A stretch of DNA of 64,000 bases from IMG/VR virus record IMGVR_UViG_3300046171_000308. The stretch is one strand, 5' to 3'. The notes beneath the pieces were generated by a model. The model was not told the DNA's origin, made no database searches, and saw nothing but the letters and a program-made list of their open reading frames with translations. Shown piece by piece: positions 17,961 through 36,937 of the stretch (its first letter is position 1; each line of letters opens with the position of its first letter). The translations under genes were made by a program, and so were the position numbers. Source of the DNA: an uncultured virus (IMG/VR IMGVR_UViG_3300046171_000308). Taxonomy: Duplodnaviria > Heunggongvirae > Uroviricota > Caudoviricetes.

Positions 17961-17973
17961 TCCTTATAGGTAA

Positions 17974-18995: not shown

Positions 18996-19005
18996 TATAT
19001 ATCAC

Positions 19006-19040
19006 AAAAAAAAGAGACACATGTCTGGACATGTGTCTCT
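19006..19040 (-). terminator. Hairpin plus U8 terminator
   Basis: 13-bp perfect stem AGAGACACATGTC/GACATGTGTCTCT followed by a T8 tract on the minus strand. Confidence 0.75.
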
Positions 19041-19323
19041 ATTTCTTACTTATGTAACAGTGCCGGGAGGCACTATTACGGTAGGGCCAATCTTCTGTCA
19101 TAAATGACTTTCTGATTGTTCAAGTAACCAAAATTAATAATTGCGCCCAACTATAAATTCCTTAATGGTTACTTTCATCCTATGTTTCTATCTACTATCC
19201 AGCTTTGCGTAAAGCCGTATATGATAATAGTTTTCACACTAATAAATAGGCTGGGCGAACCATGCCTTTTTGTTACTGGACTACTGTTATTAAATTGAGT
19301 TAGGTCGTAGTCACCTCCCGTCC

Positions 19324-19356
19324 TCATATTGTAGCGCCGAGCTAAGTAGTATTACT
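19324..19356 (-). promoter_or_regulatory. Bipartite motif copy 1 (AGTARTACTAC-N8-GCGCTACAATATGA), putative promoter
   Basis: Four copies with an identical 14-mer, an 11-mer with one variable base, and a fixed 8-nt variable spacer. Confidence 0.75.
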
Positions 19357-19864
19357 TAGTCAGCTTCCACTTATTACTAGTATTTACAACAAAATTTAGC
19401 TGTGAAGCTAATTTCTGCTATATTCACAGTACATAGATATTATGGATTTGCAGTCCTTAATTTCTATGGTAATAATCTCCATCTCTTTCGGCGTTAACCG
19501 AAGGAGCCTACGAGAAATAACCTGGAGTTCAGTCTGGCTAGACCGTGGTTATTTCAAGTCCTTTAACATACTCAATTTTGCTTCGGAAAGCTCTATCGAA
19601 TATCTCAAAAATTCATTAGTTGCGTGGGTTGAGAACCCAGTACACTAATGCCCTGTTCTTTCGCTTTTGCGTCGGGATTTGCAAAGCGGCATTATTAGGA
19701 GTAACTCAGACGGGTGGCAGTTTACCGCCACGGTTCCGAGCTGTTCTGCTCCTATTTACTTATCACTTATCTAGCTAGAGACTAATACACTAATCACTTA
19801 GCGTTACTCTTAGCCATACACATAAAGTGCGGGGGCATATCGAGTGTTATGCTTACTCCCTGGC

Positions 19865-19897
19865 TCATATTGTAGCGCCTTTGGGAGTAGTATTACT
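19865..19897 (-). promoter_or_regulatory. Bipartite motif copy 2
   Basis: TCATATTGTAGCGC 19865-19878 and GTAGTATTACT 19887-19897. Confidence 0.75.
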
Positions 19898-20021
19898 TAT
19901 ACACTTATCACTCCCATAGTGGGAATGTTGTTTTACTCATTTTTTTGAGTATTATAATTTGTCTCCAGGAGCGAGTTTTTCTGCATGTTCGTCCTGTTCT
20001 TTAGTTAATTCTTTCAATGAT

Positions 20022-20210: not shown

Positions 20211-20497
20211 TATTCATCATCTCCGAATCGCATTATCATATCTTTAGTTGCTTGACTAGCTTGTTCCATTGCTGGTATCATGCTAAATCGTGCAAAAATA
20301 TGACCGCATTTTAATCTCGGTCCGATTATTTTTTGTCCATCAGGCAGATACGCTTCGACGATTATGTCGGTGTGTCGTATGCCTTCTGTAACTACTGTTA
20401 CTTCTGTACCGATATCTTCTTGGGTCCAAATTTTTTCTTCTTCATTGTTCTTCATAATTTTACCTCCTACCGTAGTAGGATACTTATTGTTATTCAT
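20210..20497 (-). CDS. Hypothetical protein
   Basis: 95-aa ORF. Confidence 0.65.
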   Translation of the reverse strand: MNNNKYPTTVGGKIMKNNEEEKIWTQEDIGTEVTVVTEGIRHTDIIVEAYLPDGQKIIGPRLKCGHIFARFSMIPAMEQASQATKDMIMRFGDDE

Positions 20498-21144
20498 CGC
20501 TTATTTCTAGCTTTTCGGTTCTTTAGTCCCAAGTTTTCAGGACCCCAATTGAATTCTTGGGGCACTTCAACTATAATACTAGTTCTTGTAACCTTTTCAC
20601 CAGCTTTGTGCTGTTCATAACGTTTTAGCATGGTCTTTTTACGCATGGTTCCTATACTCTTTGTATTTCTAGGGGTTGCGTGTCCATTTGCTAAATGTTC
20701 ATCTAATTTAATTTGAACAAGGCCTTCAGGCCCATTTAGCCAAGAAAACAGGTCAGTGCCCGTTTCTTCTTTAGCTATTTCCATAGTCATTAATAGATGA
20801 TTTTGTCTTATATTTGTTGTCCTTAGAAAGTTATGGAAACCATAGCCTCTATTCAACATAATTAATTGCACCAGTTCTTCGTGCGAGTACTTCTGCATCA
20901 GAAATGCAGTATGTATACTCAAACATTCATCATCACAAGTCTTTCGTCTATTACTTGTTTTGAATTTAGTATTGCATACTATACATTCTCGCTCTACTTC
21001 TGGTCTGTGTTCAACCCACCATTCTTCTCGGCAGGCTTGTTTACAAAATCTGTTGCCATTTTGTATTGCAACATATTTTTTATGACACATGTCACATGAG
21101 TGTAATTGCCCAATTAAGGGGCTGGATTTGCTTCCTTTTCTCAT
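20494..21144 (-). CDS. Zinc-finger protein
   Basis: Two CxxC...CxxxC units (CDMC..CKQAC; CIVC..CDDEC). Confidence 0.7.
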   Translation of the reverse strand: MRKGSKSSPLIGQLHSCDMCHKKYVAIQNGNRFCKQACREEWWVEHRPEVERECIVCNTKFKTSNRRKTCDDECLSIHTAFLMQKYSHEELVQLIMLNRGYGFHNFLRTTNIRQNHLLMTMEIAKEETGTDLFSWLNGPEGLVQIKLDEHLANGHATPRNTKSIGTMRKKTMLKRYEQHKAGEKVTRTSIIVEVPQEFNWGPENLGLKNRKARNKR

Positions 21145-23198: not shown

Positions 23199-24356
23199 TT
23201 AAAATAAGTTTAGCTTACTCAGTAAGTCTTTTATTTCGTCTACTTCAGCAGGTTCTTCTTGAATATCAGGTTCAATGATTTCCTCTACTTCTTCAACGGG
23301 TTCTTCAACTTCTGGCTTGTCACTAACTTCGTAAGTCCACAAACCTTCATCATAAATGCAGCGCAAAGCAGGTTGTAAGTCCCGGGCGATTCCCCAGGCC
23401 CACTTCTCGTTTGCGCGTTTTATCTCATTTAGTTCTTTTAAGTCTTTTAGCGAAGCATATTCAGCTCCGTGTTCAACATCCCATAATTCTTGCATTTCTT
23501 GGTATAAATAGGAATTAGTGCTAAATATACTTGAATGTCTATCTGTTAGGTTAATCAGGTTCTCTCCAACAAAGTTTTGCTGAAGTGTACCGATTTGTCC
23601 TTTAAGGTAAGGTTTTAGGTTCCCGTCTAGGCGCTTGTCAGCACCTCTTATTGCTCGGGTCCTAAATAAGGTAGTAATGTTTTCCTCGGTGACTAAATCT
23701 TCACCAAAGCTACCTTTGTCCATTTCTAGCTGTATATCCTCAAACTTGAGCCGTCCTTTGTCCAGGAAGATTTTGGCAACAGTGCACAAAGTCTTCTGGT
23801 CGTCGTATAAACTCTTTAGAGTAGCTAGTGTTTCATCGCTAAGATTGTAACTTAGCGCGGTTTTTAGGTCAGGCGTAATAAACTCGGCTCTTGATAATTT
23901 CATAGCCGCAATTTTATTGTTTATACCTGGTCCTGTTTTCCAATGCGCGTCACCGAACACTGCATTATTACATGCAGTAGCCCAAAAGGCGCGCAATATT
24001 ATTGCTTGTCTAGACTTGTAATAAGTCTTGACAGATTTTTTGCTAAAACCGACTGAAAACTTCTTGATTTGTGAATGGCTAGGGAAAAATTGTCGCATAA
24101 CGCGCTTAATTTCTTTAGCCGTCCGGCCTTCATTTTTTAGAATGCCTCGGACAAAACTAGCAAAGGTGCTGTTTGGTCCACAAACCTTGGTAATCGAAGA
24201 TGGTAGGCTCAAGTGTAGGTGGCCAAATCCATCAACGCGTCCGTTGGTTTTCATCATTGTTTTCTCAGGTATAGCTTCTCGCCAACCTGCGTCTGTAGCT
24301 GGTATTAAAACCATAGTCGCAAGCAGGCTTGTCAAAATAATTGTTAGTTCAATCAT
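23199..24356 (-). CDS. Hypothetical protein with signal-peptide-like N-terminus and acidic tail
   Basis: MIELTIILTSLLATMVLIPATDA. Confidence 0.75.
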   Translation of the reverse strand: MIELTIILTSLLATMVLIPATDAGWREAIPEKTMMKTNGRVDGFGHLHLSLPSSITKVCGPNSTFASFVRGILKNEGRTAKEIKRVMRQFFPSHSQIKKFSVGFSKKSVKTYYKSRQAIILRAFWATACNNAVFGDAHWKTGPGINNKIAAMKLSRAEFITPDLKTALSYNLSDETLATLKSLYDDQKTLCTVAKIFLDKGRLKFEDIQLEMDKGSFGEDLVTEENITTLFRTRAIRGADKRLDGNLKPYLKGQIGTLQQNFVGENLINLTDRHSSIFSTNSYLYQEMQELWDVEHGAEYASLKDLKELNEIKRANEKWAWGIARDLQPALRCIYDEGLWTYEVSDKPEVEEPVEEVEEIIEPDIQEEPAEVDEIKDLLSKLNLF

Positions 24357-24362
24357 AGTTCT

Positions 24363-24703
24363 CTAATCACACTTATGAGTCCCGAGAGGCAGAGCCTCAA
24401 GGGAAACGAATTGTTGGTTTTATTCATAGGCAATGGTATAAGCAATACGTAGTATTTCTTCTATTGCCTTTTCAGCTTCAGGGCCAAACATTCTAGGGCC
24501 AGTCCCGGCGTCCCAGCATAAATCGTCGAAGAAAGTCAGATATTGATTTTCCTCTTCTTTTTCGTCTATAAAATATTCAAACAATTCTCTCAATTTTATC
24601 TTCGTATCATCTAACATTTTTATGCTTTATAGATACTTGACTAATCACACTTATGAGTCCCGAGAGGCAGTGCCTCAAGGGAAACGAATTGTTGGTTTTA
24701 TTC
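24363..24703. repeat. 63-bp intergenic direct repeat (24363-24425 / 24641-24703) containing a hairpin and the ATAAGTGTGATTAG leader
   Basis: One mismatch, in the hairpin loop. Confidence 0.95.
24420..24617 (-). CDS. Small protein, paralog of 24698..24961
   Basis: Shared KLRELFE N-terminus and similar C-terminal helix. Confidence 0.7.
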   Translation of the reverse strand: MLDDTKIKLRELFEYFIDEKEEENQYLTFFDDLCWDAGTGPRMFGPEAEKAIEEILRIAYTIAYE

Positions 24704-24961
24704 TTGGGTAAACTCGAAAGCGAGATGTAGTATATCTGCTACCAGACATAGGACTGGCTCATTAATTTCGCAGTGTTCTCTCATTCCTCCATTATCGCAA
24801 GCTTTGCCCCACCAGTCGATGATTGCCGATTCAAGGCAAAGTTCGTGGTCTAAAATGGTTTCACCATTCTTCTCGGTTATTAACGGCTCCCATTTCCATT
24901 GCTTTTGTTTAATGTTCTCAAACAATTCTCTCAATTTATCCTTTAATGTTTTTTCATCCAT
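24698..24961 (-). CDS. Small protein, paralog of 24420..24617
   Basis: KDKLRELFEN...ADILHLAFEFTQE. Confidence 0.7.
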   Translation of the reverse strand: MDEKTLKDKLRELFENIKQKQWKWEPLITEKNGETILDHELCLESAIIDWWGKACDNGGMREHCEINEPVLCLVADILHLAFEFTQE

Positions 24962-25011
24962 ATAGACTTCTACATTAAAGACTAATCACACTTATTAGAG
25001 TCTTTACAGAC

Positions 25012-25404
25012 TCAAAGGTCACGAAGGGACTTGATTCGGGCTTCTCTAATTTTGCGAGCCGCCTCTTGTTCAAGTTCCCATTTTTCCTTCTTTGCTCTTT
25101 GCTCGATTTCTCTGAGCTTGGCTTCTTTTTCTCTTTCGAGAACCCACTCTTTGCCTAGAACCTCAATCATTAGGGCTCGATGGCAAGGAATAGTATCAAA
25201 AGGAGCTATAGCGTACTTGCGCCACCCAGCAGACCGCATAAAAGCGGCATTTCGGTAAGGGCGGGACGCGTGAGTCTCTATCTCCTTTATTGTATTATAC
25301 AGTTCAAGCAATTGCTCGTCTGTTAGTTCTGTTTCGTCTCTTACTTGACGAAAATAATTTAACCCTGTTAGGGTTTCTAATTCTGGTTTATTTGGTTCGT
25401 TCAT
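25012..25404 (-). CDS. Hypothetical protein
   Basis: 130-aa ORF, GAGGTGA SD upstream. Confidence 0.7.
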   Translation of the reverse strand: MNEPNKPELETLTGLNYFRQVRDETELTDEQLLELYNTIKEIETHASRPYRNAAFMRSAGWRKYAIAPFDTIPCHRALMIEVLGKEWVLEREKEAKLREIEQRAKKEKWELEQEAARKIREARIKSLRDL

Positions 25405-25640
25405 ATTGTTTCACCTCGACGCTCGGCATCAAGCCTGGCTTTTACTTTTTCGTATTCAGCCATAGCCGCTTTGCGTTTTTTGCCAATTTCTTCGTGCAAG
25501 TCAATGAGTTTTAACCACTCACTGTATACCTTGGCGTATTCAGGGTATGAAGGGCAGTCCATCCTTGGCTTTAGGTGTGGCTCTAAGGTCTTATCAATAT
25601 AATCTGTCCTATTTCTATAGTTTTTATCCATTTTTTTCAC
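25401..25640 (-). CDS. Hypothetical protein
   Basis: 79-aa ORF. Confidence 0.65.
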   Translation of the reverse strand: MKKMDKNYRNRTDYIDKTLEPHLKPRMDCPSYPEYAKVYSEWLKLIDLHEEIGKKRKAAMAEYEKVKARLDAERRGETI

Positions 25641-25657
25641 CGTTACCCTGTAGGTAA

Positions 25658-25740
25658 CTAATCACACTTATAGAGCCCCCAGTGTAGGCCGAAACCTTCC
25701 TGGGGGCAGTTATAGTCACTCGGACTATATTAGTTCATAT
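25658..25740 (-). promoter_or_regulatory. Two-hairpin intergenic element, second copy at 29360-29439
   Basis: Shared AGGCCGAAACCTTCC core; compensatory T-A to C-G change in the second stem. Confidence 0.75.
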
Positions 25741-25764
25741 TACGCTATCCAGTTTTTACTCTGT

Positions 25765-27672
25765 TCAATCGAATTTAGGAGTTTTGGACCTCTTAGAGCC
25801 CCTTTTCCTGTTTCTTTTGGTAGTTTTTGGTTCGTCGTTACTTCGGACAAGAGCCAAAAGCTCTGTCTTGTTCATGCTAGAATAGCCGGTTAGGGCTAGT
25901 TCTTTGCATCTTTCACGTAGTTCCTTGACAGTAGTAGTGTCCGGCCATAGAGGTCCGTTGTCGACAATATCAATATTGCCGAGACCTCCAATGGCGTCTT
26001 CAATGGTATTTGAATCAACTTTAGTGGTTTTGTACTTCTCGACGTCATATTCATCAGCCGAGTGTACTGCATCCTTTAGTTCTGCTAGCTTTTCAGCTTG
26101 CTTAACATCAGTTCGATTCTTCTTGTTGTTTTTGTTGGATTTCTTGCGAGGTGCCTTCTTCAGTCGGTTGACATCCTTCACCTTGGAGAGTGGTTTAGAC
26201 TCTAGGTTGGTAATGTCCTTTCCTTTAGATTTCTGCATCGCAGCCATAATGTAAAGTCCGGCAAGTCTAGCTTTGAGCCCATTATGCCCATTAAGCATAA
26301 TATTCATCCATGTGTATAGATGGGCCCCATTTTTCTTAAACTTGTCATCATTAGTAAATAACGGGGAGTGAACTCCTCGCATTTTGCAATAACTCAGGAC
26401 ATCTCCGCTGTAATGGTTATATCCTTCTTTCTTTACATTCCAAAATGGTGTATTTCTAACACCATTTGTAGGTCCAAAATAGCATCTCAGACCATTCCAG
26501 TCTGAGCGCGATTTCAACTTTGATTCACCATTTCTGTTTATTGTGACCATTTTTTCTAGCATTGATGTGCAATGCCAGACAAGATATTCCTGACTGTTCT
26601 TAGTCATGACAATCTTAAATCGTCTTAGTTTCTGGGCAAGTATTTCAGTCTTAGCTTGACTGACTTTCATTTTTGTCCAAGATACTTTGTCAAGTAGTGT
26701 TGTACTTTTATCAGCATTTAATTCATACTGAGTCTTTAAGTCCTTTTCTACCGTTTTCGTGGCAGACTCATCGCCTGCCGTGTACTTCATCATATCAACG
26801 ATTTGTACACCGAAATAATCAGATTTAATGGGCATATTCCTTTCATTAAACTTGTTGTCGACCAGTTCTTCTGACCAGACTCTAAAGTCTTCGTGGAATT
26901 TTTCCCATCTATCATCTATAAAATTCGAATTGTACTCTTCATAATTACATGTATTCTTTACTTGAAGTGTGGCTATCTTCTCAGCAGCCTTAACGAATCC
27001 CATTTGTATTAAACCAGGGATATGTTTTTCTTCAGTAAGATGTAACTTGTAAGGTCCTAGGTCGAGTTCATCGCGTAGGTCCTTTAGTAGAGTAAATAAT
27101 TTGTCGTGATTGAAGGAAATGTGCAACATTGAATGGTTCAAGTGCTTTTTATTTTCCTTCAATACTTCTGGATAACTTAAGATAGCATGTAACAGGTAAT
27201 CAAGTCTCATTGCTTGGTCGTTAATCCTGTTATCTAGCTTATCATATTGTTCCTTTAGTTCTTTTTGCAAAACATCAAGGAAATTCCCTTGTTCTTCATG
27301 AGCGCAGAGTTTTACAACTCGGTTCATAAAGGCTTTAGGGGTTTCAATACCCAGTTCTTCAGTAGCCCATTTTTGGGTATACTTCTGGTTTTTACCAGCT
27401 TGTTTATTTTGCCCAGGAGCAATTTTAATTTTTGCTCGTCTAGGCTTTCGCTGGCGTTTGTTATCTTTTGACACCATGAGTACTCCTCCAGCTAGTGTCC
27501 AGAATGGGTTCTCGAAAATCAGATTTCCAAGGTTTATTTCTGGTACGCTGCTGTCAGCATCTAGGTGTTCATTATTTTTTGCTTCATTAGCTTCTGCTTC
27601 TGCTGTATGTATGGCGCTTAGAGCACCAAATACAAGCATTAGCATAACTATTATTCTTGCTATTAATTTCAT
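25765..27672 (-). CDS. Large basic protein with signal-peptide-like N-terminus and C-terminal SAP/Rho_N-like helix-extension-helix
   Basis: MKLIARIIVMLMLVFGALSAIHTAEA; TVKELRERCKELALTGYSSMNKTELLALV. Confidence 0.75.
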   Translation of the reverse strand: MKLIARIIVMLMLVFGALSAIHTAEAEANEAKNNEHLDADSSVPEINLGNLIFENPFWTLAGGVLMVSKDNKRQRKPRRAKIKIAPGQNKQAGKNQKYTQKWATEELGIETPKAFMNRVVKLCAHEEQGNFLDVLQKELKEQYDKLDNRINDQAMRLDYLLHAILSYPEVLKENKKHLNHSMLHISFNHDKLFTLLKDLRDELDLGPYKLHLTEEKHIPGLIQMGFVKAAEKIATLQVKNTCNYEEYNSNFIDDRWEKFHEDFRVWSEELVDNKFNERNMPIKSDYFGVQIVDMMKYTAGDESATKTVEKDLKTQYELNADKSTTLLDKVSWTKMKVSQAKTEILAQKLRRFKIVMTKNSQEYLVWHCTSMLEKMVTINRNGESKLKSRSDWNGLRCYFGPTNGVRNTPFWNVKKEGYNHYSGDVLSYCKMRGVHSPLFTNDDKFKKNGAHLYTWMNIMLNGHNGLKARLAGLYIMAAMQKSKGKDITNLESKPLSKVKDVNRLKKAPRKKSNKNNKKNRTDVKQAEKLAELKDAVHSADEYDVEKYKTTKVDSNTIEDAIGGLGNIDIVDNGPLWPDTTTVKELRERCKELALTGYSSMNKTELLALVRSNDEPKTTKRNRKRGSKRSKTPKFD

Positions 27673-27690
27673 ATTAATCTAATCACACTT

Positions 27691-27731
27691 AAAATAAAAA
27701 AAACCGGGATAGTTTTAACGCTATCCCGGTT
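27691..27731 (-). terminator. Hairpin plus U-tract terminator
   Basis: 11-bp stem AACCGGGATAG/CTATCCCGGTT followed by a T-rich tract on the minus strand. Confidence 0.8.
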
Positions 27732-28465
27732 AATTGATATAAAAACCCGCCAACTTCCGCGCACCACTGAGCCCCCGGCTTTATCCGGTGGGGCTCACTA
27801 ATGTGGGCGTATATCCTCGAGCTCTTGCGAGCTTCGTAGCTGGAGTTCTGTTCCCCTCTAAAAGAGGGTTGATAAATTACTGTGCGACCTTACCCACTAA
27901 CTTCATCAGCTAGCAGGTTCGCCGGGCTTAAGCCCTATTTTGGTCTCATGATTTTATATCAGGACTCACGAAGAGTCCCTGGCGAGTGTGGTAAATTGTG
28001 TGTGTGCGTAATGCACTTAATTTTTCAGTTGGAGGCACTTCTAGCATAAGCTAGCATACCATACAGGTTGTCCAACAACCTTCCAATCAGTTTTCATCAC
28101 TCACTTATCTCGGTTTGGGGGTATGACTTTTGGTCACCTCGACTTTGCAGTCAGATTCTCCCCATGCCGAGGTTGTGCTTACCGCACTGATAGGCTCCCA
28201 ATCCACGAATGGCAGAGGGAGCTTGAGTCTCTTAATCTAGTATTGTTGCCTAAATTTATATCTTCCAGTACTAGATAGATAAGAGGTGTACGTCGTCGTT
28301 TATTGGTGGGTGCTTTCTTACTCGTAACATCTGTAGGCATACATATAATGTTACGCGCCTCTCCGGCGTATGTAGCTTAACTACATCTCACCTGCCTTTA
28401 TATTTTATTACCGTACTAATTGAAGGGAGGCTTTGCATTGTTTACTTTGTCTCCTGCTCTCTCCT
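27691..28465 (-). ncRNA. Putative structured ncRNA (about 770 nt)
   Basis: ORF-free; runs from motif copy 3 to the terminator; many GC-rich stems and a multibranch domain at 28109-28171. Confidence 0.6.
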
Positions 28466-28498
28466 TCATATTGTAGCGCCGCCCAAAGTAGTACTACT
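28466..28498 (-). promoter_or_regulatory. Bipartite motif copy 3
   Basis: TCATATTGTAGCGC 28466-28479 and GTAGTACTACT 28488-28498. Confidence 0.75.
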
Positions 28499-28618
28499 TG
28501 AGCAGCTGTGCTTACCGCACTTATCCCCGCCCTAGGGAAGTTGGTACAGGGCTTGAGTCCATATCTGATGGGGTCTCCGTCGCTCGATGGCGGTACCTTT
28601 TAGAGTTAACATAAGCAA

Positions 28619-28885
28619 TTAAAGTTCACGCTTCGGTTCGATGTCCCAATTGATAGCAATGAGTCCATTGTGGCTCTCTGCTGTCCAATCATCGTCAACA
28701 TTGTCGTAATTACCCACTGCCCCGCATCCTTTGCACGGGGTTTCATTGCGTATTGTGTGCTTACCTGGAATAAATCCAGTCATTTGCACAGCACCGCAGA
28801 TATGGGTCGCTTTTCCTTCATCGTCTTCCTTTAATGTCTCAAAACAAATAATTTTCATTCTGTTTACCTCTCTAATTTGAACCAA
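28619..28885 (-). CDS. Small Cys-containing protein
   Basis: 88-aa ORF with HICG and PCKGCG. Confidence 0.6.
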   Translation of the reverse strand: MVQIREVNRMKIICFETLKEDDEGKATHICGAVQMTGFIPGKHTIRNETPCKGCGAVGNYDNVDDDWTAESHNGLIAINWDIEPKREL

Positions 28886-28967
28886 GCCTCCCTACCCCCG
28901 AAAGAGTAGGAATCAGGCAATAACCCTCGGGTTATAGTTCTAAATATGCAAGCAGTCCGCTTTCTGG

Positions 28968-29354
28968 TTATTGTTTCTCGACTTCGCAGCCAAGAATTTC
29001 GGCAATTTCCTCAATAGCCTGCCAAACATCCTTTAAGTTTGCTTGGTTTTGGCTAATGATGGCTTGTAATACTTCCCGTAAATATAGGAAGTTATCGTCG
29101 TTAATTGCATCGTTGTTTTGAATTAATAAATCAAGCTTTTCAAGTCGTTTTTCTGACTCGCTTCTAATCTTGTTCATTCTCTTCAATGTATCATTTTCCA
29201 GGCAGATGACATTTCTGTCAATCTTTGCTTGCTTTGCTTTCATAATTTTCATGCGCAATTCATAGTACATATGACAAAATACTAGTATGGCTATTGCAGC
29301 CGGTCCTAATTCAGTCAGTCCTTGAAGCGCTATTTCTAAAATTGTGTTTAACAT
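28968..29354 (-). CDS. Membrane-anchored coiled-coil protein
   Basis: N-terminal hydrophobic helix followed by a coiled coil. Confidence 0.7.
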   Translation of the reverse strand: MLNTILEIALQGLTELGPAAIAILVFCHMYYELRMKIMKAKQAKIDRNVICLENDTLKRMNKIRSESEKRLEKLDLLIQNNDAINDDNFLYLREVLQAIISQNQANLKDVWQAIEEIAEILGCEVEKQ

Positions 29355-29459
29355 AATATCTAATCACACTAAAAAGCCCCCCGGAAGGCCGAAACCTTCC
29401 AAGGGGCAGTTATAGCCCGCAGGCTATATTAGTTCATAATTAATTGCTTATCGACTATT

Positions 29460-29795
29460 TCAAAAGTTTTTTCCGCTTCCTAGAAACTGCTTCTTAGGTA
29501 AGCTAACTTCTTCAGTTCTACCTAGCATATCTTCAATCGTTTTTCTGATATCAGATGCATCGGTTATCTTTGTCTCACAAACAAAGTCAGTCCCCAAGCC
29601 GTTAATAACTCTGATATACATAATCGAGTCATTATCGTTCCACTTGGTAAAAACTGTATTTTCAACAGTTTCTGACATTTGTACAGATACTTTTCCATGT
29701 GACTGGTCTCTGTTTTTTGTAATTGGTTTGTTCAATAGTTCTTGCAATTTTTTTCGGGACCCGCTTCTAAAATACGGGTATTCTGCTCTTGGCAT
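29460..29795 (-). CDS. Hypothetical protein
   Basis: 111-aa ORF, first gene downstream of motif copy 4. Confidence 0.7.
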   Translation of the reverse strand: MPRAEYPYFRSGSRKKLQELLNKPITKNRDQSHGKVSVQMSETVENTVFTKWNDNDSIMYIRVINGLGTDFVCETKITDASDIRKTIEDMLGRTEEVSLPKKQFLGSGKNF

Positions 29796-30935: not shown

Positions 30936-31200
30936 TGTACCAGCTCCCTTTGCTACTGTTGCAATAATAAAAGACCATCATCTACAAGACTTAAACTTCC
31001 GCTTTGGCTTAGTTATGTTTGGTAGTATACTTATATGGATTTACTTAATGGTGGCATTTCTAATAAACGAACTAGTCCCCAGTGACCTCATATTTTTTGT
31101 CGGTGGCTTTTTCTTAATGTACCGAGCAGGTAAAATAAGCGATAAAATTTACGAAATAGAACAGTACATTGATGGTGAGGAAGTACTTGCCCTAGACTGA
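30856..31200 (+). CDS. Membrane protein (2 TM)
   Basis: Two hydrophobic helices; true start probably near 30915. Confidence 0.7.
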   Translation: MTTKKRKQKTQMMTMMTGTGMKMENGDVPAPFATVAIIKDHHLQDLNFRFGLVMFGSILIWIYLMVAFLINELVPSDLIFFVGGFFLMYRAGKISDKIYEIEQYIDGEEVLALD

Positions 31201-31463
31201 TGCACTACCTAATGCCACTTCATGAAATCCTTTCCAAAGCGGATGAGGACACGATAATGAATGCATTATCAATTACCAAAGAAGAGCTTCCCAATTTAAT
31301 CTACGAGGACGCAGCTTTGCAGCATTTAAGAATTCAGGGAACAGAAACCCCGGTTAATTCAGTCGTAAAGATTACAATTGTTCGTAGTAAATATGACGAC
31401 ACTGATTCTGATGACCCCGCTGATAGGACACGTGTCAGATATAGGGTAATTAAGAGGGTTTGA
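31200..31463 (+). CDS. rpoH: RNA polymerase subunit Rpo5/RpoH (Rpb5 C-terminal domain)
   Basis: HYLMPLHEILS...ITKEELPNL..ED...VVKITIVRS...RYRVI matches the HxLVPxHEIL..LPxI...DP..IIKIxRxS..YYRxV pattern. Confidence 0.8.
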   Translation: MHYLMPLHEILSKADEDTIMNALSITKEELPNLIYEDAALQHLRIQGTETPVNSVVKITIVRSKYDDTDSDDPADRTRVRYRVIKRV

Positions 31464-31464
31464 T

Positions 31465-31902
31465 ATGGAGTACGAAGTTTGGACAGACGGAAGCTGCATA
31501 AAAGAAGACTCGAGAGATAGCAAAGGCGAATGTGGCTCTGGATATGTTATTGTAGACAAAGATACTGGTAATATTCTACACCTACACGGTGAGTACATAG
31601 GCGTAACCACTAATAATATGGCAGAGTTTGTAGCCGTTGAATTAGCATTAGAAGACCTAGTAGCTCGAAACCTAGGGCCTTCAGTACATATCAAAATAGT
31701 GAGCGATTCTAAAATGGTAGTAGAAGGTTTATCCGATAACTATAACATAAGAGAACCGGGTCTCAAAAGTATAATTAAGAGAATAAGAGTATTAGAGGAT
31801 AAACTCAAAGGAGTGCACCAATACCAATGGGTAAAGGCCCATGTAGGGACAGAGCTGAATGAAATAGCCGATTATTTAGCATACACAGCAGCGAGAGGAT
31901 GA
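31465..31902 (+). CDS. rnhA: Ribonuclease HI
   Basis: VWTDGS, TNNMAE, IVSDS, WVKAHVG..LNEIAD. Confidence 0.95.
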   Translation: MEYEVWTDGSCIKEDSRDSKGECGSGYVIVDKDTGNILHLHGEYIGVTTNNMAEFVAVELALEDLVARNLGPSVHIKIVSDSKMVVEGLSDNYNIREPGLKSIIKRIRVLEDKLKGVHQYQWVKAHVGTELNEIADYLAYTAARG

Positions 31903-31903
31903 T

Positions 31904-34900
31904 ATGGTTATTCAAGAGCCAACGACAATACCCCTAGTAAAGGGTTTTTCTTGGTTTTTCACAGAAGAAGAGCTGATTGTAGAAGGAAACAAAACCTTCG
32001 TGCAGTTTGACATAGACGGAGCTCAATGGTTACCAGCAAATCCAGGCGAAGCTTATAGATGGTATTTGTACTCACCTAATGCTGCTAGTATTAGAGCTAA
32101 AAGTGGCTTGTTACACATAGTTCAAGTCGCTAACATTTCTTATGCAGACACCGCTAGGGCTTTAGACGGAGAGCCAGAGCCAGCTGATTGGCTTTATACA
32201 GAAATGCTTGACATTTCTGAACGACTCGACTTAGAGCCAGAATATACTGGGTATGTTGTAGAAGGGCCTATCTCTGCTAAATTTTCAGTTTACCCAAGAC
32301 ATACTATTCACCCAAGCACCAAACAAGTTGGAGCAATCTACAGCAATATGATGAGCCGAGAAGAAATTGAAATGCTAAGTGGCGACAGGGTTATCCGCCA
32401 TGCCGATGTTTTAGAATCACAGCGACAAACTACAACTCAGTTGCCGGGCAAACCAAAACCTATTTTTGGCGGGGTTTCTGACTTAAGATTAGGTGCTACT
32501 ACCCCCGATGAAAACTGTATGACATGTGGTCTTCCAGCAGACCTAAAAGGCGAAAAAGAATACTCTTGCCCAGGACACTTCGGCAGAATTAACTTAGTTA
32601 CTCCTGTGCCTAATTATCTTTATCTTACAGGAGATATAGATAACTCTCCGTTAATTAAAACACTAAAGTATGTATGCCTAAACTGTAGCAAAGTTGTCTT
32701 GCCAGATGAATACTTGAACCCGTTAATTGAGCAGGCGAAAGAAGTAATGTATGAAAACGGGATGACAAGCCCGGATGGGTACAAGATAATTATGACTGCG
32801 CTAAATGATGCCTATAATGCATACTATGTAGAGCGAAAAAGAGACTTAGGCCCCTATCAGCTTACACAAGGAGGTCCAGTAGCAACTCCTTTGACTACTA
32901 AAGTAAATCACTGCCCGCACTGTAATGAATACTCTCCGATTCTTCAATTCAAGATGACCTTTGGTATGGGCCGCCGTGCAGAGTTTTTCCCCATGCAAGG
33001 AAAAAGACCACGTGACCAGTTCCCTAGGAGTCGACCGTATGCTTACGATGTAGTACATGCCGCACTCAGCGAAGTTCCAAACGACCATGCACTTGCTATG
33101 GCCTTTAATACTGAAATTGATACTTTAACCGACCAACCTCGTTCTCATCCTCGTTATTTCTTTTGGGAGGTATTCCCTATAGCACCTAATAGTATTAGGC
33201 CGCCTCAAGAGTCTCCTACCGGTGCATTGGAAACCAATGACTTAACTCAACTTTACGTAAATGTAGTAAAAGCAAATCAAGCACTAATGGACTTAGGGAC
33301 AGACTCACAAAAATTCAGACGAAGTGAATCTATCTTGTTTAAAGCCTGTACTCAAGCACTTAGTACACAAACCGCCTTCGGAACTCCGTCGGTAGCATTG
33401 CGTTTCGGGGGTAGCGGAACTACTACAGATGCGCTCAAAGGTGTGTATGATAGAATTAAACCCCCAGGTCAAGCTAAAAACCACATAAGAAGAATAAATC
33501 AATCTAAAGTAAGTGAACACACTATCTACTCAGTAATCACTCCTAACCCAGATTTACGTTTAGACGAAGTCGGCATTCCTCGCGGTGCATGTATTAGATT
33601 AACCGTAGCAGAGCAAGTAACGGCAGAGAATATTGAACGACTAAGAGATGCTGTCATTACTGGATATCCATATGAAAGAAGAGGTGCAGGCGGCCTAACC
33701 AAAGCTGATGAAAACCGATATTTTGGCGGAGCTAAATTTATTCAACAGGCAGGTAACAAGGCAAGGATTTCCTTAGAAGACGAACCGAACTCTCGTTATA
33801 ATCCTTTTAGAGTAGAGTATATCAAATCTCAATATCTAATGGAAAAGTATCAAGGCGATTCTAGTAAAATGATTAGACAAAAGGACCCAGAAGCTCTCAA
33901 TGTTTGGTATCAAGAGATTCTAAGAGGTATACGCGCTAGTTACCGCGGAGTTGAAGATAGGACAAATATGTATACTGCTATAGAAGAGGCAAAAAGAGAT
34001 TTCAAGTATGAATATGCCAAAGATAAGCGAAGAGGATTAGCTGCCGCATTAAAAATAGGTGACACAGTTCACCGAGGACTAAGAAGTGGGGATATGATTA
34101 TTTTTACTAGGGCACCAGCACTTCATCGTCAGAATGTTATGGCTGGTAAAGTACGACCTTTAGACCAAAAAGCAATTTCTTTCAATCCTACTATCTGCGT
34201 TCCTTTCAACGCTGACTATGATGGCGACACCATGAGATGTTTCGTACCACAATCACCAGAAGCTATCCAAGAATGTAAAGACATACTAGATGTAAATAAG
34301 CAAATTATGCACTCTAGGTATGGTAGACCTACTATTGCTTCTGACCAAGATGAAACATCAGGCGCTTACTTGCTTACCTTCCCTAACAAGTCTAAATTAA
34401 CCTACAAAGGAAAGGACGAAGACGGTAATGACATTACTATTACTTACAATGCTTATCAAAAGCTAGACAAAGACGAAAGAAAGAAGTTCAAAGGACCGCA
34501 TGGTACATTCGATGGAAGAATAGGCTACGACAAAAACGGTCACGTTTACTTTACCAAACAAGCCCTAATCGAAATGTTAGGTCTAGTTTATACAAGAGAT
34601 GACGAAGGTAATGTCAAGTATCTAACAGAATTACCAGAGCCTGATTTCAAAAAGTATTACACTGGTAAATCAGTAGTATCTATGTTTATCCCCGAAGGAA
34701 TCAACTGTGATTGGAAAGACTCAACTGGTGAAGAAGTGTCTATCCGCAATGGTCAACTACTCCGTGGAACATTAGACGCAAAGGGTGTAAAGAACGGCTC
34801 CATGGTTCTAGGTGCCGCCTTTATCTACCACTTTAACTATGAGTTAGGTATTAGAAAGCTAGCAGAATTTATTGACCACATTAACCGTCTATTTTTTGCT

Positions 34901-36937
34901 GCTCATCTGTATGTTGGTTACACAATAGGCATCGAAGATATTTCATTGTCTACTCCAGAGTTCTTAGAAAAGAAAACACAGCTATACAACGAAGCAAGTG
35001 AAAAGATAGAAGTCATTACAAAAGCATTTTTCAACAAAACTCTTGATGAGCTACCCGAAGAATACTTCGATGAGTTTTCCCGCCACTGGCTAACCTATGA
35101 CCCATACGGTTGGATGGAGTTTACTATCTCCAAAGTTACCGAAGACTTTGATGATGAGATAATCAAACTAACTAAAGAGCTCCAAGGCACAGCTAACCAA
35201 ATGAACATAGCCGTGGTTTCCGGTGCACGAGCTAAGAACCTAAACATACAGCAAATGTCCGGAGCTTATGGACAAGTGCGTGTAGGAGGAACAAGATTGC
35301 TCAGCGGGGCTAAGGTAGGCAGACTATTGTCTCATTACAAAGAAGGAGACTACTCTGGAGAAGCGTTTGCTTTCACTCCAGATTCTTACGCAGACGGGTT
35401 CCGCCCTGAGCATTATTTCTTAGCAAGCATTGCTGGTAGACGTTCAAATATGGAGTCTTCTATGGGGGCAATTCAAGATTCAGGATACTTAGAACATCGT
35501 CTGAAAAGAGCTTGTGAAAATTTAATGATAGACGAAAGAGGGTATCTAGTTAACCTGCGGTTAGGTAAAATTCTGTCTTTCCAAACTGGCGAAGATGGGC
35601 TTCAACCATTCCATGCGCGAGGGCCAGACAACAAAAATGGATATTCACTTTCACTTCAACCGCTATTCCTGGGACATGTCTGTAAGCACAATAAAACGCT
35701 ATTTGATAAATGTGACACATGTCAAGTACGTACACCTTACCGAAAAACGAGCAAACTTTCCCAGATACCGGCAAATATGAGAAATTCAATTTTATCCAAA
35801 CTAGAAGTGAGAGAAATAGAAGACCCGACAGCTCTGTTTAGTCGCGCACATGAGTATTACCAAGAAAGTAAAGCGCGACCAGGAGAAATGATTGGCGCGA
35901 CAGGAGCAGCTAACGTAGGAGAGCCAGTTACACAAGCAGGACTTAGAGCATTCCACGGAGGAGGTAAAGGAACTACCCCAACCATTGATAGAATTGTTCA
36001 GATATTAGACCTATCACAGTCTGAGATAGCTCAGCCTTCTACTAGATTTTACTTGTTACCAGAATACAACAACGAACAGGACGCCCAGCATCTTGCTAAT
36101 TTCTGCTCTACTCTTTACATGTCGGACATAACAAAACTAATCAAATACCAACCACAAGAAAGAGGGATAGATGTAATGCTTGATTATGATGTTATAGAAA
36201 CTTTTGAAATCGACCCAGAGTTTATTCTAAAACTTCTTTCGTTCAAGGGCAAAAAGGAGAAACCGAAATTTGATGTAACAGAGATAGAAGGTGGCTTAAG
36301 GATAAGAACGACCGATGTACCTGAATATATTGATATTGACTCTTACTTACTCGTCTTGCGAGAGTTTGTTGAGAAATATCAGATTCATGGCTTGATTAAT
36401 GGCGGGAGAGCATTTACTGATTTTAGCCCGCACCCAATGGGAGGGGAAGCTCGGTGGCAGGTTGTGGTTAACGGACCAGAGACTCCGTCCCCTGGACGAG
36501 CAAACCCAATGATGGAAAATGCTGCGGAGCTGATGGGACAATATTATGACGAAAGCCTAACCACTTCTAACGACCCGTTTTGGGCAGCTCATGAATATGG
36601 CTTAGAGGCAGCTTTAGCTTGTGTCAAGGAGATATTTAACAACCAGATGAATAGCGACAGTGGGCTAGGAGAACTTGATATTAGGTACATTGACGCACTC
36701 ATAGACAACATGGGTAGCACCGGCTATCTAGCTGGCCTAGCCAAGTCTGGACACATGGTTTCCAAGTCTACCTCTCTAATAGGTGGCATTGGTGGCGAAG
36801 ACCCTGGACTTTCTCTACGAGCTCACCCAATAATGGGAACAGTAGACCGGTTAGAGGGCATGGTAGAAGCAATAACCGCTGGTAAGGATTTAGTGATAGG
36901 CAAGGCCTATATCGAAAAGAAACTATCTAAAGAGTAA
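31904..36937 (+). CDS. rpo1: DNA-directed RNA polymerase largest subunit, fused A'+A'' (Rpo1/Rpb1-like), divergent
   Basis: CMTC..CPGHFGRINL zinc site, RAPALHR, catalytic NADYDGD, SGYLEHRL bridge helix, GEPVTQAGLRAFHGGG trigger loop. Confidence 0.95.
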   Translation: MVIQEPTTIPLVKGFSWFFTEEELIVEGNKTFVQFDIDGAQWLPANPGEAYRWYLYSPNAASIRAKSGLLHIVQVANISYADTARALDGEPEPADWLYTEMLDISERLDLEPEYTGYVVEGPISAKFSVYPRHTIHPSTKQVGAIYSNMMSREEIEMLSGDRVIRHADVLESQRQTTTQLPGKPKPIFGGVSDLRLGATTPDENCMTCGLPADLKGEKEYSCPGHFGRINLVTPVPNYLYLTGDIDNSPLIKTLKYVCLNCSKVVLPDEYLNPLIEQAKEVMYENGMTSPDGYKIIMTALNDAYNAYYVERKRDLGPYQLTQGGPVATPLTTKVNHCPHCNEYSPILQFKMTFGMGRRAEFFPMQGKRPRDQFPRSRPYAYDVVHAALSEVPNDHALAMAFNTEIDTLTDQPRSHPRYFFWEVFPIAPNSIRPPQESPTGALETNDLTQLYVNVVKANQALMDLGTDSQKFRRSESILFKACTQALSTQTAFGTPSVALRFGGSGTTTDALKGVYDRIKPPGQAKNHIRRINQSKVSEHTIYSVITPNPDLRLDEVGIPRGACIRLTVAEQVTAENIERLRDAVITGYPYERRGAGGLTKADENRYFGGAKFIQQAGNKARISLEDEPNSRYNPFRVEYIKSQYLMEKYQGDSSKMIRQKDPEALNVWYQEILRGIRASYRGVEDRTNMYTAIEEAKRDFKYEYAKDKRRGLAAALKIGDTVHRGLRSGDMIIFTRAPALHRQNVMAGKVRPLDQKAISFNPTICVPFNADYDGDTMRCFVPQSPEAIQECKDILDVNKQIMHSRYGRPTIASDQDETSGAYLLTFPNKSKLTYKGKDEDGNDITITYNAYQKLDKDERKKFKGPHGTFDGRIGYDKNGHVYFTKQALIEMLGLVYTRDDEGNVKYLTELPEPDFKKYYTGKSVVSMFIPEGINCDWKDSTGEEVSIRNGQLLRGTLDAKGVKNGSMVLGAAFIYHFNYELGIRKLAEFIDHINRLFFAAHLYVGYTIGIEDISLSTPEFLEKKTQLYNEASEKIEVITKAFFNKTLDELPEEYFDEFSRHWLTYDPYGWMEFTISKVTEDFDDEIIKLTKELQGTANQMNIAVVSGARAKNLNIQQMSGAYGQVRVGGTRLLSGAKVGRLLSHYKEGDYSGEAFAFTPDSYADGFRPEHYFLASIAGRRSNMESSMGAIQDSGYLEHRLKRACENLMIDERGYLVNLRLGKILSFQTGEDGLQPFHARGPDNKNGYSLSLQPLFLGHVCKHNKTLFDKCDTCQVRTPYRKTSKLSQIPANMRNSILSKLEVREIEDPTALFSRAHEYYQESKARPGEMIGATGAANVGEPVTQAGLRAFHGGGKGTTPTIDRIVQILDLSQSEIAQPSTRFYLLPEYNNEQDAQHLANFCSTLYMSDITKLIKYQPQERGIDVMLDYDVIETFEIDPEFILKLLSFKGKKEKPKFDVTEIEGGLRIRTTDVPEYIDIDSYLLVLREFVEKYQIHGLINGGRAFTDFSPHPMGGEARWQVVVNGPETPSPGRANPMMENAAELMGQYYDESLTTSNDPFWAAHEYGLEAALACVKEIFNNQMNSDSGLGELDIRYIDALIDNMGSTGYLAGLAKSGHMVSKSTSLIGGIGGEDPGLSLRAHPIMGTVDRLEGMVEAITAGKDLVIGKAYIEKKLSKE

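Follow-up and report, generated by a model that had tools for sequence, protein, structure and literature searches.

A candidate large structured noncoding RNA gene, probably of a new family, in a mobile element attributed to Marine Group II archaea

Results

We analyzed a 64,000-nt stretch of DNA from an uncultured virus (the window) and identified on its minus strand a promoter-like cassette (M1) followed by ~770 nt with no ORF longer than 55 aa, two T-tracts that are putative terminators, and then the next gene (Table 1). We estimate at roughly 60% the probability that this region is a functional, independently transcribed ncRNA gene, and the large ncRNA family that it represents is probably real and new. 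The flanking signals and genes are all on the minus strand, in line with the strand given to the unit. A preliminary description of this DNA had proposed an ORF-free, hairpin-rich unit running from the third copy of a motif (here placed at 28457-28513) to a hairpin and T-run (here at 27696-27731). We confirmed this unit, and all the stems named in that description were present when their coordinates were checked. The proposed length of ~770 nt, on the other hand, was correct for the window but is specific to it, owing to an insertion of 229 nt.

Table 1. Features of the RNA unit, its flanks and the RNA-library contigs, by position in the window
Feature	Position	Strand	Remarks
Two further ORF-free units	about 19856 to 19400; 19315 to 19005		each after an M1 copy
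635-aa ORF	25765-27672	minus	signal-peptide-like N-terminus; weak Rho_N/SAP-like match; downstream of RNA unit
M2 motif TAAGTGTGATTAG	27679-27691	minus	3' edge of conserved cassette; 6 nt before ATG of next gene
Second terminator (putative)	27696-27731	minus	11-bp hairpin then T8; from terminator scan
First T-tract	27736-27749 (TTTTT at 27741-27745)	minus	after closing stem of 3' domain; putative terminator
346-nt core	27750-28095	minus	part covered by RNA-library contigs
Long 3' hairpin, stem TGAGCCCC..GGGGCTCA	27768-27797	minus	carries compensatory change 2
GCAA-loop hairpin, one bulged A	27818-27836	minus	carries compensatory change 1
CCCUCU/AGAGGG stem	27854-27868	minus	from sequence
CCUGCUAGC.. 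hairpin	27893-27917	minus	within 346-nt core
UCGCC..GGCGA domain	27919-27985	minus	two hairpins inside; from sequence
CA-rich linker	27986-28005	minus	within 346-nt core
GUGC-AUUAC-GCAC hairpin	28004-28016	minus	within 346-nt core
Three-way junction	28029-28086	minus	within 346-nt core
TAAGTGAGTGATG, variant of intergenic M2 motif	28095-28107	minus	exactly at ends of two RNA-library contigs
Conserved 5' domain	28109-28188	minus	identical in window, L003 and L006; folded in all predictions
CUCGG..CCGAG multibranch	28109-28172	minus	part of conserved 5' domain
GUGC-GGUAA-GCAC hairpin	28175-28187	minus	part of conserved 5' domain
229-nt insertion	28189-28417	minus	window only; 53-aa ORF 28179-28340 within
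Variable 5' leader of transcript	28419-28466	minus	93-98% identity to L003 and L006
Promoter-like cassette M1	28457-28513	minus	57-nt family with 4 copies in window, all minus
Module X, recurrent, ~90 nt, intergenic	28514-28604	minus	downstream of 88-aa ORF
X19 contig	27749-28092		depth 70; sole other X19 contig depth 10
X18 contig	27750-28096		depth 9; adapter letters abutting 27750
X16 contig	27778-28134		
X15 contig	27797-28046		

With translation table 11, the longest ORFs in the unit were one of 53 aa on the minus strand (28179-28340) and one of 55 aa on the plus strand (27882-28049), and the genes flanking the unit were intact under the same table. Recoding of stops (TAG=Q, TGA=W, TAA=Q) gave just frames of 85-121 aa with 1-5 read-throughs each, none of which spanned the unit. 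The 53-aa ORF had no homologue among 1.84 billion representatives, a 33-aa frame (27946-28047) was broken in a related locus (L003) by a 1-nt indel, and an ATG frame read from the leader sequences was 17 codons long in the window and 8 codons long in L003. By ORF tables, recoded stops, locus alignment and homologue search, a conserved reading frame was absent from the RNA unit. The GC content of the unit exceeds the window mean. Within the window only the promoter motif and an 18-nt repeat recurred as paralogues, complementary matches that could mark antisense targets all had E >= 0.6, and the GGTAA loop motif was not enriched on the minus strand (70 observed versus 81 expected).

A Pfam scan of the 68 ORFs in the window identified PolB, Cpn60_TCP1, Resolvase and Rpb1 domains 1-5. 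The window genes also include an archaeal-type RNA polymerase A, Rpb5, primase, thermosome and resolvases, and the solved structures closest to the window proteins were archaeal thermosomes and archaeal RNAP A'/Rpo1N. According to Philosof et al. 2017 (PMC5434244), the group D magrovirus has PolB, a thermosome subunit, a resolvase and an RNA polymerase subunit A of archaeal affinity, while capsid, portal and terminase genes are not recognisable in group D elements. The gene content of the window agreed with this published description, with which it was compared in place of a reference sequence. No capsid, portal or terminase gene was found among 68 ORFs searched by Pfam and 23 by PHROGs, a search that covered 64 kb of a 130-kb contig. 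Judged by its genes, the window is not a bacteriophage, and its gene set matches that of the Marine Group II elements termed group D magroviruses. The source is most likely a mobile element of ~130 kb that belongs to uncultured Marine Group II archaea and has its own archaeal-type RNA polymerase subunits. A search with Rpb1 returned ~26 protein clusters, whose identity was 47-71% and whose contigs reached 136 kb, and ARAGORN detected no tRNA or tmRNA gene across the whole window. Gene orientation flips at about 30.4 kb, ~2 kb from the RNA unit, and RNase H, primase and PolB are encoded nearby in the element.

M1 consists of a 12-bp perfect palindrome, AGTAGTACTACT (28487-28498), an 8-nt spacer and the block GCGC-TACAATAT-GA (TACAATAT at 28468-28475), and its invariant blocks are evident in an alignment with the L003 and L006 copies. 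Three of the four M1 copies head stretches that have no ORF of at least 80 aa on either strand. M1 is a putative promoter, with a candidate transcription start near 28465. It is not of the sigma-70 type, as M1 was absent from the 15 sigma-70-like sites that were found (15.7 expected by chance) and has a TACAAT-like block with no -35 match. Since the host appears to be archaeal, bacterial promoter and terminator logic serves here only as an analogy. Upstream of M1, module X ends with GACTCAAGC, a hairpin and then AGTGCGGTAAGCACA; its identity was 94% in L003 (2886-2970) and 92% in L008 (2026-2114), where the context differs. A 15-mer reported to occur twice was indeed found at 28174-28188 and 28507-28521, but GACTCAAGC, said to follow each copy, was located 30-33 nt from each rather than adjoining it. 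The second copy of the 15-mer had been placed inside the unit; it sits upstream of the promoter-like motif and, with its GACTCAAGC, belongs to module X rather than to the transcript.

At the other end of the unit, a scan for hairpins followed by T-runs found 18 sites in the region versus 5.3 expected, and the strong hairpin/U-tract described earlier was recovered at 27702-27731 as 11 pairs plus T8. The 68-nt segment 27673-27740, which contains this terminator and M2, was 100% identical over the aligned 62-68 nt of L003, L006 and L007, and 95% identical in L008. The sequence AGTGTGATTAG occurred six times at 24363-29370, always on the minus strand, and the pattern AGTGYGRTWAG gave 8 matches in all versus 0.21 expected. 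Terminator and M2 cassettes of ~80 nt recurred across the window and all loci with 82-91% identity.

Using the 635-aa ORF as an anchor to find homologous loci, we found the same RNA region in four metagenome contigs (L003, L006, L007 and L008). Identity of the 448-nt core to the window was 98.9% in L003, 98.4% in L006 and 96.0% (177 nt) in L008, while the nucleotide identity of the 635-aa gene was 92.0%, 78.3% and 83.3%, respectively, and 76-92% over the relatives. Downstream of the cassette lies the 635-aa ORF in three sequences (window, L003, L007), and in L006 and L008 the next gene is an unrelated ORF of 106 aa; in these two loci, four other ORFs follow the cassette in place of the 635-aa gene, and identity to the window ends at the M2 motif. 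The near-identity of the core over diverged elements could reflect recent recombination instead of purifying selection. The leader of L003 had a 1-nt deletion and an altered 3' half. The 229-nt insertion was absent from L003 and L006 in the alignment, had no copy in any locus retrieved, and had the 10-nt sequence AGTRCGGTAA as a direct repeat on either side (28408-28417 and 28179-28188). Since 229 of the ~770 nt are an insertion seen only in the window, the conserved unit is ~500-540 nt. BLASTN detected no relative in phage and plasmid collections, in IMG/VR neither the 635-aa protein nor PolB nor Rpb1 had a relative, and the GTDB genome contigs yielded no relative. An 18-mer of the core matched one viral contig and one Poribacteria MAG; these are chance matches, as BLASTN showed nothing further in common.

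Fold z-scores were -7.7 for the 773-nt unit of the window, -6.7 for the uninterrupted form in L006 and -4.9 for the 346-nt core on the minus strand (-3.6 on the plus strand). The fold z-score alone does not set the region apart, because two of three equal-length coding controls from the neighbourhood were similarly low (-4.8, -5.4 and -0.1), and a sliding z-scan over 14-31 kb with 20 shuffles per window was dropped as a discriminator since it was negative nearly throughout. We then compared base pairs among four sequences. All cells of the 113 predicted pairs were paired (100%); 111 pairs were invariant and 2 were changed on both sides, of which one counts as a pair when folded on the window-only MFE. 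Double-sided changes numbered 0 in all six slid controls, and the shuffle control equalled the observed covariation score in 16 of 500 trials. The first compensatory change (27833 A>G with 27820 T>C) is A-U in the window and L003 and G-C in L006 and L008, and is present too in the X16 and X19 RNA contigs. The second (27794 G>A with 27771 C>T) lies in the long 3' hairpin, where 27790 C>U keeps a G.U pair on the minus strand only and a T>C at 27797 breaks the closing pair; the 27790 and 27794 variants were also seen in RNA contigs. Both double changes are common to L006 and L008 and may represent a single lineage. Of the 7 differences between the window and L006, 4 form the two compensatory pairs and 1 retains a G.U pair; when 7 substitutions were placed at random, at least one compensatory pair arose with P=0.012 and at least two with P=3e-5. 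In L003, the G.U pair of a local hairpin becomes G-C through a T>C at 27900, and the remaining changes are in a loop. Although covariation is thin, this concentration of substitutions in compensatory pairs suggests selection on RNA structure.

Six of 20 runs containing the stretch were RNA libraries, and all four RNA runs examined by contig gave contigs over the core (Table 1). The X18 and X19 contigs, which are from different studies, agreed within 4 nt at both ends; with the depth of 70 in X19 and the adapter at one end in X18, they hint at a stable 346-nt species. The idea that the transcript is processed into smaller RNAs gained some ground from these ends (~28092-28096 and 27749-27750), though weakly. 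A second X15 contig (28409-28665) passes directly across M1. The X16 contig had 6 differences in 357 nt, while its neighbouring-gene contigs showed 21 over 183 nt and 25 over 231 nt. These data are assembled contigs and as such are no proof of strand, ends or level; carry-over of DNA into RNA libraries is possible, and the missing contig cover at 28135-28408 and over the downstream gene carries no evidential weight. Taken with the lack of a conserved ORF, the high conservation and the two compensatory changes, the occurrence of the region in RNA libraries supports the earlier reading of a structured ncRNA.

Rfam 15 (4227 models) gave no match at the gathering threshold over the whole window. 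The preliminary description had called for a comparison with ROOL, GOLLD and ribozymes, and none of these families matched, nor did RNase P, SRP, C/D and H/ACA sRNAs or group I/II introns. At E up to 10, the window had two sub-threshold matches in the terminator area (22.7 bits versus a cutoff of 120.3, and 16.2 versus 60), as did the uninterrupted form in L006 (21.5 versus 51, and 14 versus 39). Motifs suggestive of a hammerhead (CUGAUGA..GAAA), a C/D-box or K-turn (GUGAUGA..CUGA) or RNase P (GGUAA loops, ACAGAA), and the idea that the two contig ends have a bulge-helix-bulge or RNase III-type origin, were each rejected, as they were without Rfam support and their hand-paired geometry was unfit.

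Discussion

The large RNAs GOLLD and ROOL are ornate RNAs of phages, prophages and plasmids and are represented in Rfam. Our RNA resembles them in its several hundred nucleotides with many hairpins and no ORF, its location on a mobile element, its own putative promoter and terminator, an expression that is strong in those RNAs and is seen here as contigs only, and a function that is not known. It differs from them in having no sequence or structure match to the Rfam models, an archaeal rather than bacterial context and no tRNA genes nearby. The archaeal RNase P and SRP RNAs are near the 346-nt core in size (292-306 nt and 305-315 nt, respectively, for Marine Group II; PMC5069720) and share its strong conservation and multi-helix build, but neither model gave a match at E up to 10. 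The same paper (Hou et al. 2016) describes Tan1, an abundant 229-nt chromosomal ncRNA of Marine Group II with GGGAAAC-type repeats. Tan1 is likewise a structured ncRNA of the same host group, seen in marine metatranscriptomes and without a known function; being chromosomal, 229 nt long and built of repeats, with no shared motifs by eye, it was judged unrelated. Open-access papers, though not a dedicated check, yielded no report on ncRNAs of magroviruses or Poseidoniales elements.

We propose that transcription would start just past M1, run leftwards and stop at the T-tract 27741-27745 or at 27696-27703, to give a transcript of ~725-770 nt in the window and ~500-540 nt in relatives without the insertion. 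The leader is variable and tolerates insertion, whereas the 448-nt body is nearly invariant, and the precursor may be cut back or cleaved, leaving a protein-bound, nuclease-resistant core. The unit appears to behave as a cassette that spreads when recombination takes place at M1 and M2, the conserved motifs between genes, because its 3' edge is at M2 in L006 and L008 and its neighbours differ between element lineages. Independence from the 635-aa gene follows from L006 and L008, in which the cassette precedes other ORFs. The promoter-early stem-loops of T4-type phages are reportedly mobile regulatory cassettes, a view ascribed to Arbiol et al. 2010; there, too, variable units lie between short, highly conserved promoter and stem-loop sequences that seem to promote modular exchange among related genomes, but the shuffled unit here is a 0.5-kb structured RNA gene of an archaeal element, and M1 and M2 are unrelated to the T4 sequences.

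The least certain step is function. The RNA might act in trans in the life cycle of the element, as a stable scaffold or decoy (an RNP or a self-assembling particle), on the model of the large ornate RNAs that phages and prophages carry and not as an antisense regulator. Taken by itself, the scaffold or decoy mechanism is less likely than not. Structured RNAs longer than ~300 nt without a known function are rare, and the large RNAs that have been solved are ribozymes, ribonucleoprotein scaffolds or self-assembling cages. At somewhat less than even odds, the RNA may found a new class of large, near-invariant RNAs from RNA-polymerase-bearing Marine Group II elements. It would then be one of at least three ncRNA genes sharing a palindrome-containing promoter cassette, would form a defined particle (an RNP or self-assembled) or be catalytic, and would be needed for replication or host take-over. 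If true, this would be the first such RNA from an archaeal virus or plasmid, as we know of no structured RNA of this kind from either. [quoted passage not shown] The RNA gene offers a concrete handle on these elements and a marker to find them in sequence data, and its product is a candidate component of their replication or of host take-over. Being short, it can be synthesised in vitro, and no cultured host is needed for its study.

The strongest alternative, although unlikely, is that we are dealing with a regulatory cassette, selfish or neutral, that spreads among co-infecting elements by homologous recombination at M1 and M2, with its near-identity due to recent spread and its transcript a functionless by-product. 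The exact stop of identity to L006 and L008 at M2 next to differing neighbour genes would fit, as would the recurrence of module X elsewhere in L008, the repeated ~80-nt terminator and M2 units, and the 10-nt repeat of one such motif that borders the insertion. Against mere spread stand the concentration of the scarce substitutions in compensatory pairs, ~500 nt of elaborate structure far beyond the needs of a promoter and terminator, and a defined part at depth 70 in one RNA library.

It is considerably harder to sustain that the RNA is a cis-acting leader, in which alternative structures of an attenuator or antiterminator govern passage of the two T-tracts. The RNA region is directly upstream of a gene in 5 of 5 sequences, and in the folding model ACCUGCUAGCU could pair locally or with the sequence preceding the first T-tract, which resembles a terminator/antiterminator switch. 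However, the gene so placed is not the same one throughout, each downstream gene has its own M2 motif, and two further M1-headed units are ORF-free. The X18 and X19 contigs also end at 27749-27750 and leave the gene uncovered, which as contig evidence is weak.

It is highly improbable that the region is conserved because it serves as a replication origin or similar DNA-level element, or because it yields a primer RNA as ColE1 RNA II does: the region is ORF-free, highly conserved and close to both the gene-orientation switch and the RNase H, primase and PolB genes, but it lacks iterons or repeated boxes except for the one 15-mer pair, has no AT-rich unwinding stretch and a GC content above the window mean, is closed by terminators, and has compensatory changes and G.U pairs that point to structure at the RNA level. 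We give just as little credence to a functional product that is a plus-strand RNA, whether antisense or opposite in sense, or that consists of small proteins, one or several. ORFs of 33-55 aa are present on both strands, but none is conserved, one being broken by the indel in L003 and the 53-aa insertion frame being without homologues. If the X18 library was of the dUTP type, a chemistry not established for this run, its adapter letters at 27750 would be compatible with a 5' end on the plus strand. Against a plus-strand RNA, the fold of the core was poorer on that strand, the 27790 C>U change retains pairing on the minus strand only, and about ten G.U pairs of the minus strand become A.C mismatches on the plus strand.

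Organization of an ORF-free unit upstream of the 635-aa gene

The minus-strand unit lying between an 88-aa ORF and a 635-aa ORF (25765-27672, minus) had been put forward in the preliminary description as a structured non-coding RNA. Its lack of an ORF was confirmed, since the longest frames under table 11 reached 53 aa on the minus strand and 55 aa on the plus strand, and so were its hairpins and hairpin/U-tract; all the stems listed were present in the sequence. When one stop codon at a time was read as sense, only frames of 85-121 aa containing 1-5 read-throughs were obtained, none of which spanned the unit. Since the neighbouring genes read intact with table 11, there is no indication of recoding. 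The ncRNA interpretation was supported in substance, while the size, the host context and the placement of the upstream 15-mer had to be corrected: the conserved unit measures about 500-540 nt rather than ~770 nt, a 229-nt insertion being absent from two related loci (L003 and L006), and the upstream 15-mer is not part of the unit.

Features of the RNA unit, in 5' to 3' order along the minus strand
Feature	Position	Strand	Remark
88-aa ORF	ends 28619	minus	upstream gene
Module X	28514-28604	minus	90 nt, after the 88-aa ORF
M1, promoter-like cassette	28457-28513	minus	57 nt, after module X
ORF-free stretch		minus	between M1 and the first T-run
Leader	28419-28466	minus	5' part
Insertion	28189-28417	minus	229 nt
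Body	28188-27741	minus	448 nt
Core	27750-28095	minus	346 nt
First T5 run	27741-27745	minus	
11-bp hairpin + T8	27696-27731	minus	also recovered by terminator scan
M2 motif TAAGTGTGATTAG	27679-27691	minus	
ATG of the 635-aa ORF	27672	minus	6 nt past M2

Conservation of the RNA body

Alignment of relatives of the 635-aa protein (7 relatives, 67-85% identity) led to the retrieval of eight marine metagenome loci. Sequence upstream of the gene was present in four of them, and the RNA region was found in all four: L003 contains it whole, L006 has everything from the -50 region of M1 onwards, and L008 and L007 have the last 241 nt and the last 80 nt, respectively. The body was 98.9% identical between L003 and the window while the adjacent 635-aa gene was 92.0% identical at the nucleotide level; for L006 the values were 98.4% and 78.3%. 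Likewise, L008 showed 96.0% over 177 nt of the RNA region versus 83.3% in the gene, and the 80-nt piece of L007 98.75% versus 75.6%. Within one RNA-library sample (X16), the RNA contig had 6 differences in 357 nt, as against 21 over 183 nt and 25 over 231 nt in gene contigs. The RNA body is extremely conserved relative to the flanking genes, and the unit has no conserved ORF; conservation is lower in module X (94%) and in the leader (93%) than in the body. No relatives were found in the phage and plasmid collections, in IMG/VR or in the GTDB genomes.

Structure and covariation

The uninterrupted form folded at -191 kcal/mol (z = -6.7) and the window form with the insertion had a z of -7.7; for the core, the minus strand scored z = -4.9 and the plus strand -3.6. 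The fold z was not specific to the RNA unit, as equal-length coding controls gave -5.4 (23400-23930, minus), -4.8 (26000-26530, minus) and -0.1 (PolB gene), and a sliding scan was negative across 14-31 kb. An unusually high degree of structure seems to characterize the mRNAs from this gene block.

The substitution pattern is better structural evidence than the fold z. RNAalifold with four sequences predicted 113 pairs in 16 helices, 111 of them invariant. The two others showed compensatory changes in the predicted structure: in a GCAA-loop hairpin, 27833/27820 went from A-U to G-C, and in the long 3' hairpin 27794/27771 went from G-C to A-U. Double-changed pairs numbered 0 in slid controls, and a shuffle control with four sequences attained the score in 16 of 500 trials. 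The two double changes accounted for four of the seven differences between the window and L006; one more keeps a G.U pair, one breaks a closing pair and one is an odd site of the window only. With seven substitutions placed at random, at least one compensatory pair had P = 0.012 and at least two had P = 3e-5. A bulged A permits two registers, so that on the structure predicted from the window alone just one of the two double changes is scored. The changes in L003 were a loop replacement and one G.U to G-C. The numerous G.U pairs of the model favour the minus strand, on which the RNA most likely lies.

Presence in RNA libraries

The stretch was present in 20 of the 24 listed runs, 6 of them RNA libraries (15 studies in all). 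All four RNA runs compared with 26400-29500 had contigs over the core: 27749-28092 in X19 (depth 70; the sole other X19 contig had depth 10), 27750-28096 in X18 (depth 9), 27778-28134 in X16 (depth 5.1) and 27797-28046 in X15 (depth 2.2). The 21 loose letters abutting 27750 in X18 we take to be Illumina adapter. RNA libraries contain the unit, and a 346-nt piece of it recurs among them. Although X18 and X19 belong to different studies, their contigs agree at both ends within 4 nt, which points weakly to a defined 346-nt species. Contigs convey neither strand, ends nor level. A second X15 contig (28409-28665) runs across M1, and DNA carry-over is a possible source of the RNA-library contigs. 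The 5' end of the common contig coincides with an M2 variant, TAAGTGAGTGATG (28095-28107), and M2-type sequences could mark RNA 5' ends, as starts or cleavage sites. We infer a precursor that is processed to the core and an RNA that acts in trans.

A probable archaeal context

A Pfam scan of 68 ORFs of the window identified a 1677-aa RNA polymerase A (Rpb1 domains 1-5, A' and A'' fused in a single chain), an Rpb5_C (Rpb5/RpoH-like) protein, a family-B DNA polymerase (PolB), a weakly matching archaeo-eukaryotic primase, RNase H, two serine recombinases and a group II chaperonin (thermosome subunit). The polymerases, the Rpb5-like protein and the thermosome subunit are encoded among 31200-36937 (+), 36907-39648 (-) and 59556-61100 (-). 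Archaeal thermosomes were the best solved relatives of the chaperonin (E about 1e-119), and archaeal RNAP A'/Rpo1N the best relatives of the RNA polymerase. The Rpb1 protein has about 26 relatives (47-71% identity) on contigs of up to 136 kb, one deposited as 'bacterium'. Other genes of note, at 20494-21144 (-), 44804-46522 (+), 11471-12853 (-) and 42810-43733 (-), are an ORF that resembles HNH endonucleases by PHROGs, a restriction enzyme of the GmrSD type, which the Pfam scan also identified, and the two recombinase genes; the recombinase at 42810-43733 has a Resolvase domain and that at 11471-12853 the Pfam Recombinase domain only. Near-identical direct repeats occur at the left end of the window, in or beside short ORFs (23-101/330-408, 79 nt, 97%; 305-333/498-526, 29 nt, 100%), and a 9-nt unit, TCAGTATTT, has four tandem copies at 40114-40149 inside a 345-aa ORF.

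Group D contigs, as described from Tara Oceans by Philosof et al. (2017, PMC5434244), encode a DNAP, a thermosome, a resolvase and an RNA polymerase A with archaeal affinity, are without a morphogenetic block and are of unexplained nature; Xu et al. (2023, PMC10160649) describe cellular-fraction enrichment and suggest that they may be plasmid-like. Matched against this published description, the gene content of the window appears to fit group D, and the context of the RNA unit is most plausibly archaeal. A bacterial promoter/terminator reading of the unit would consequently be an analogy only.

M1 occurs in four copies in the window, all on the minus strand. In an alignment that included the L003 and L006 copies, its invariant parts were AGTAGTACTACT, a perfect 12-bp palindrome, and GCGCTACAATATGA, separated from it by an 8-nt spacer. 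A promoter had been proposed here; M1 had no sigma-70-type match. M1 is the likely promoter of the unit. In an archaeal frame its palindrome would sit at the position of a TATA-like element (-30 to -19 relative to the ATG that M1 contains) and TACAATAT would be promoter-proximal; under either reading transcription should start near 28465.

No Rfam family, ribozymes, ROOL and GOLLD included, matched the window at gathering; at E up to 10, the only matches were sub-threshold ones over the terminator, and this was true of the uninterrupted L006 form as well as of the window. No tRNA or tmRNA was found in the window. Tan1, an abundant MG-II ncRNA, was unrelated when compared by eye, and the magrovirus papers searched make no mention of non-coding RNA. 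The nearest analogues are GOLLD and ROOL, large ornate RNAs of phages and prophages, by kind, and the mobile promoter/stem-loop cassettes of T4-type phages for genome architecture.

Mosaic organization and other motif copies

The insertion lies in a GUGC-GGUAA-GCAC hairpin with a 10-nt direct repeat, AGTRCGGTAA, on both flanks. At the 3' end the insertion has GACTCAAGC followed by a hairpin and AUCAGUGCGGUAAG, similar to the 3' end of module X, which in L003 terminates in M2 itself. No further copies were found in the window and the retrieved loci, and its 53-aa frame had no homologues among 1.84 billion representatives. In L006 (620-2500) and L008, identity to the window ends exactly at M2, and the RNA cassette is separated from the 635-aa gene by four other ORFs (106, 55, 94 and 248-249 aa). 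Repeated terminator+M2 cassettes of ~80 nt (82-91% identity) are found both in the window and in the loci. Because of the insertion, the ORF swap at M2 and the recurring module X and terminator+M2 cassettes, the region is a mosaic whose units meet at short conserved motifs, and by these comparisons the RNA unit seems to have cassette-like mobility. In the ~80-nt cassette, which stands after several genes (25657-25745, 29360-29440, L001-L008), M2 follows a GC-rich hairpin whose loop is of the GGCCGAAACC type. In L008 a module X copy is followed by a further insert of ~300 nt (2115-2400), ORF-free and hairpin-rich, that L006 lacks.

Six M2 copies lie at 24363-29370 (minus), with AGTGTGATTAG at 24363, 24641, 24982, 25658, 27679 and 29360; the pattern AGTGYGRTWAG had eight matches in all versus 0.21 expected. 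Each copy checked was preceded by a hairpin and T-run, with a start codon 5-6 nt (three) or 17-20 nt (two) further on. M2 may be a start signal, a processing signal or, because the GUGAU within it would base-pair with the 3' end of archaeal 16S rRNA, a Shine-Dalgarno-type site.

Other ORF-free parts of the window gave no credible Rfam match. The M1 copies at 19856-19912 and 19315-19371 head stretches to ~19400 and ~19005 with no ORF of at least 80 aa, one closing in a hairpin and T8 near 19005-19040, and a further ORF-free kilobase spans 16920-17970. These stretches probably correspond to the 'first' large RNA of the preliminary description.
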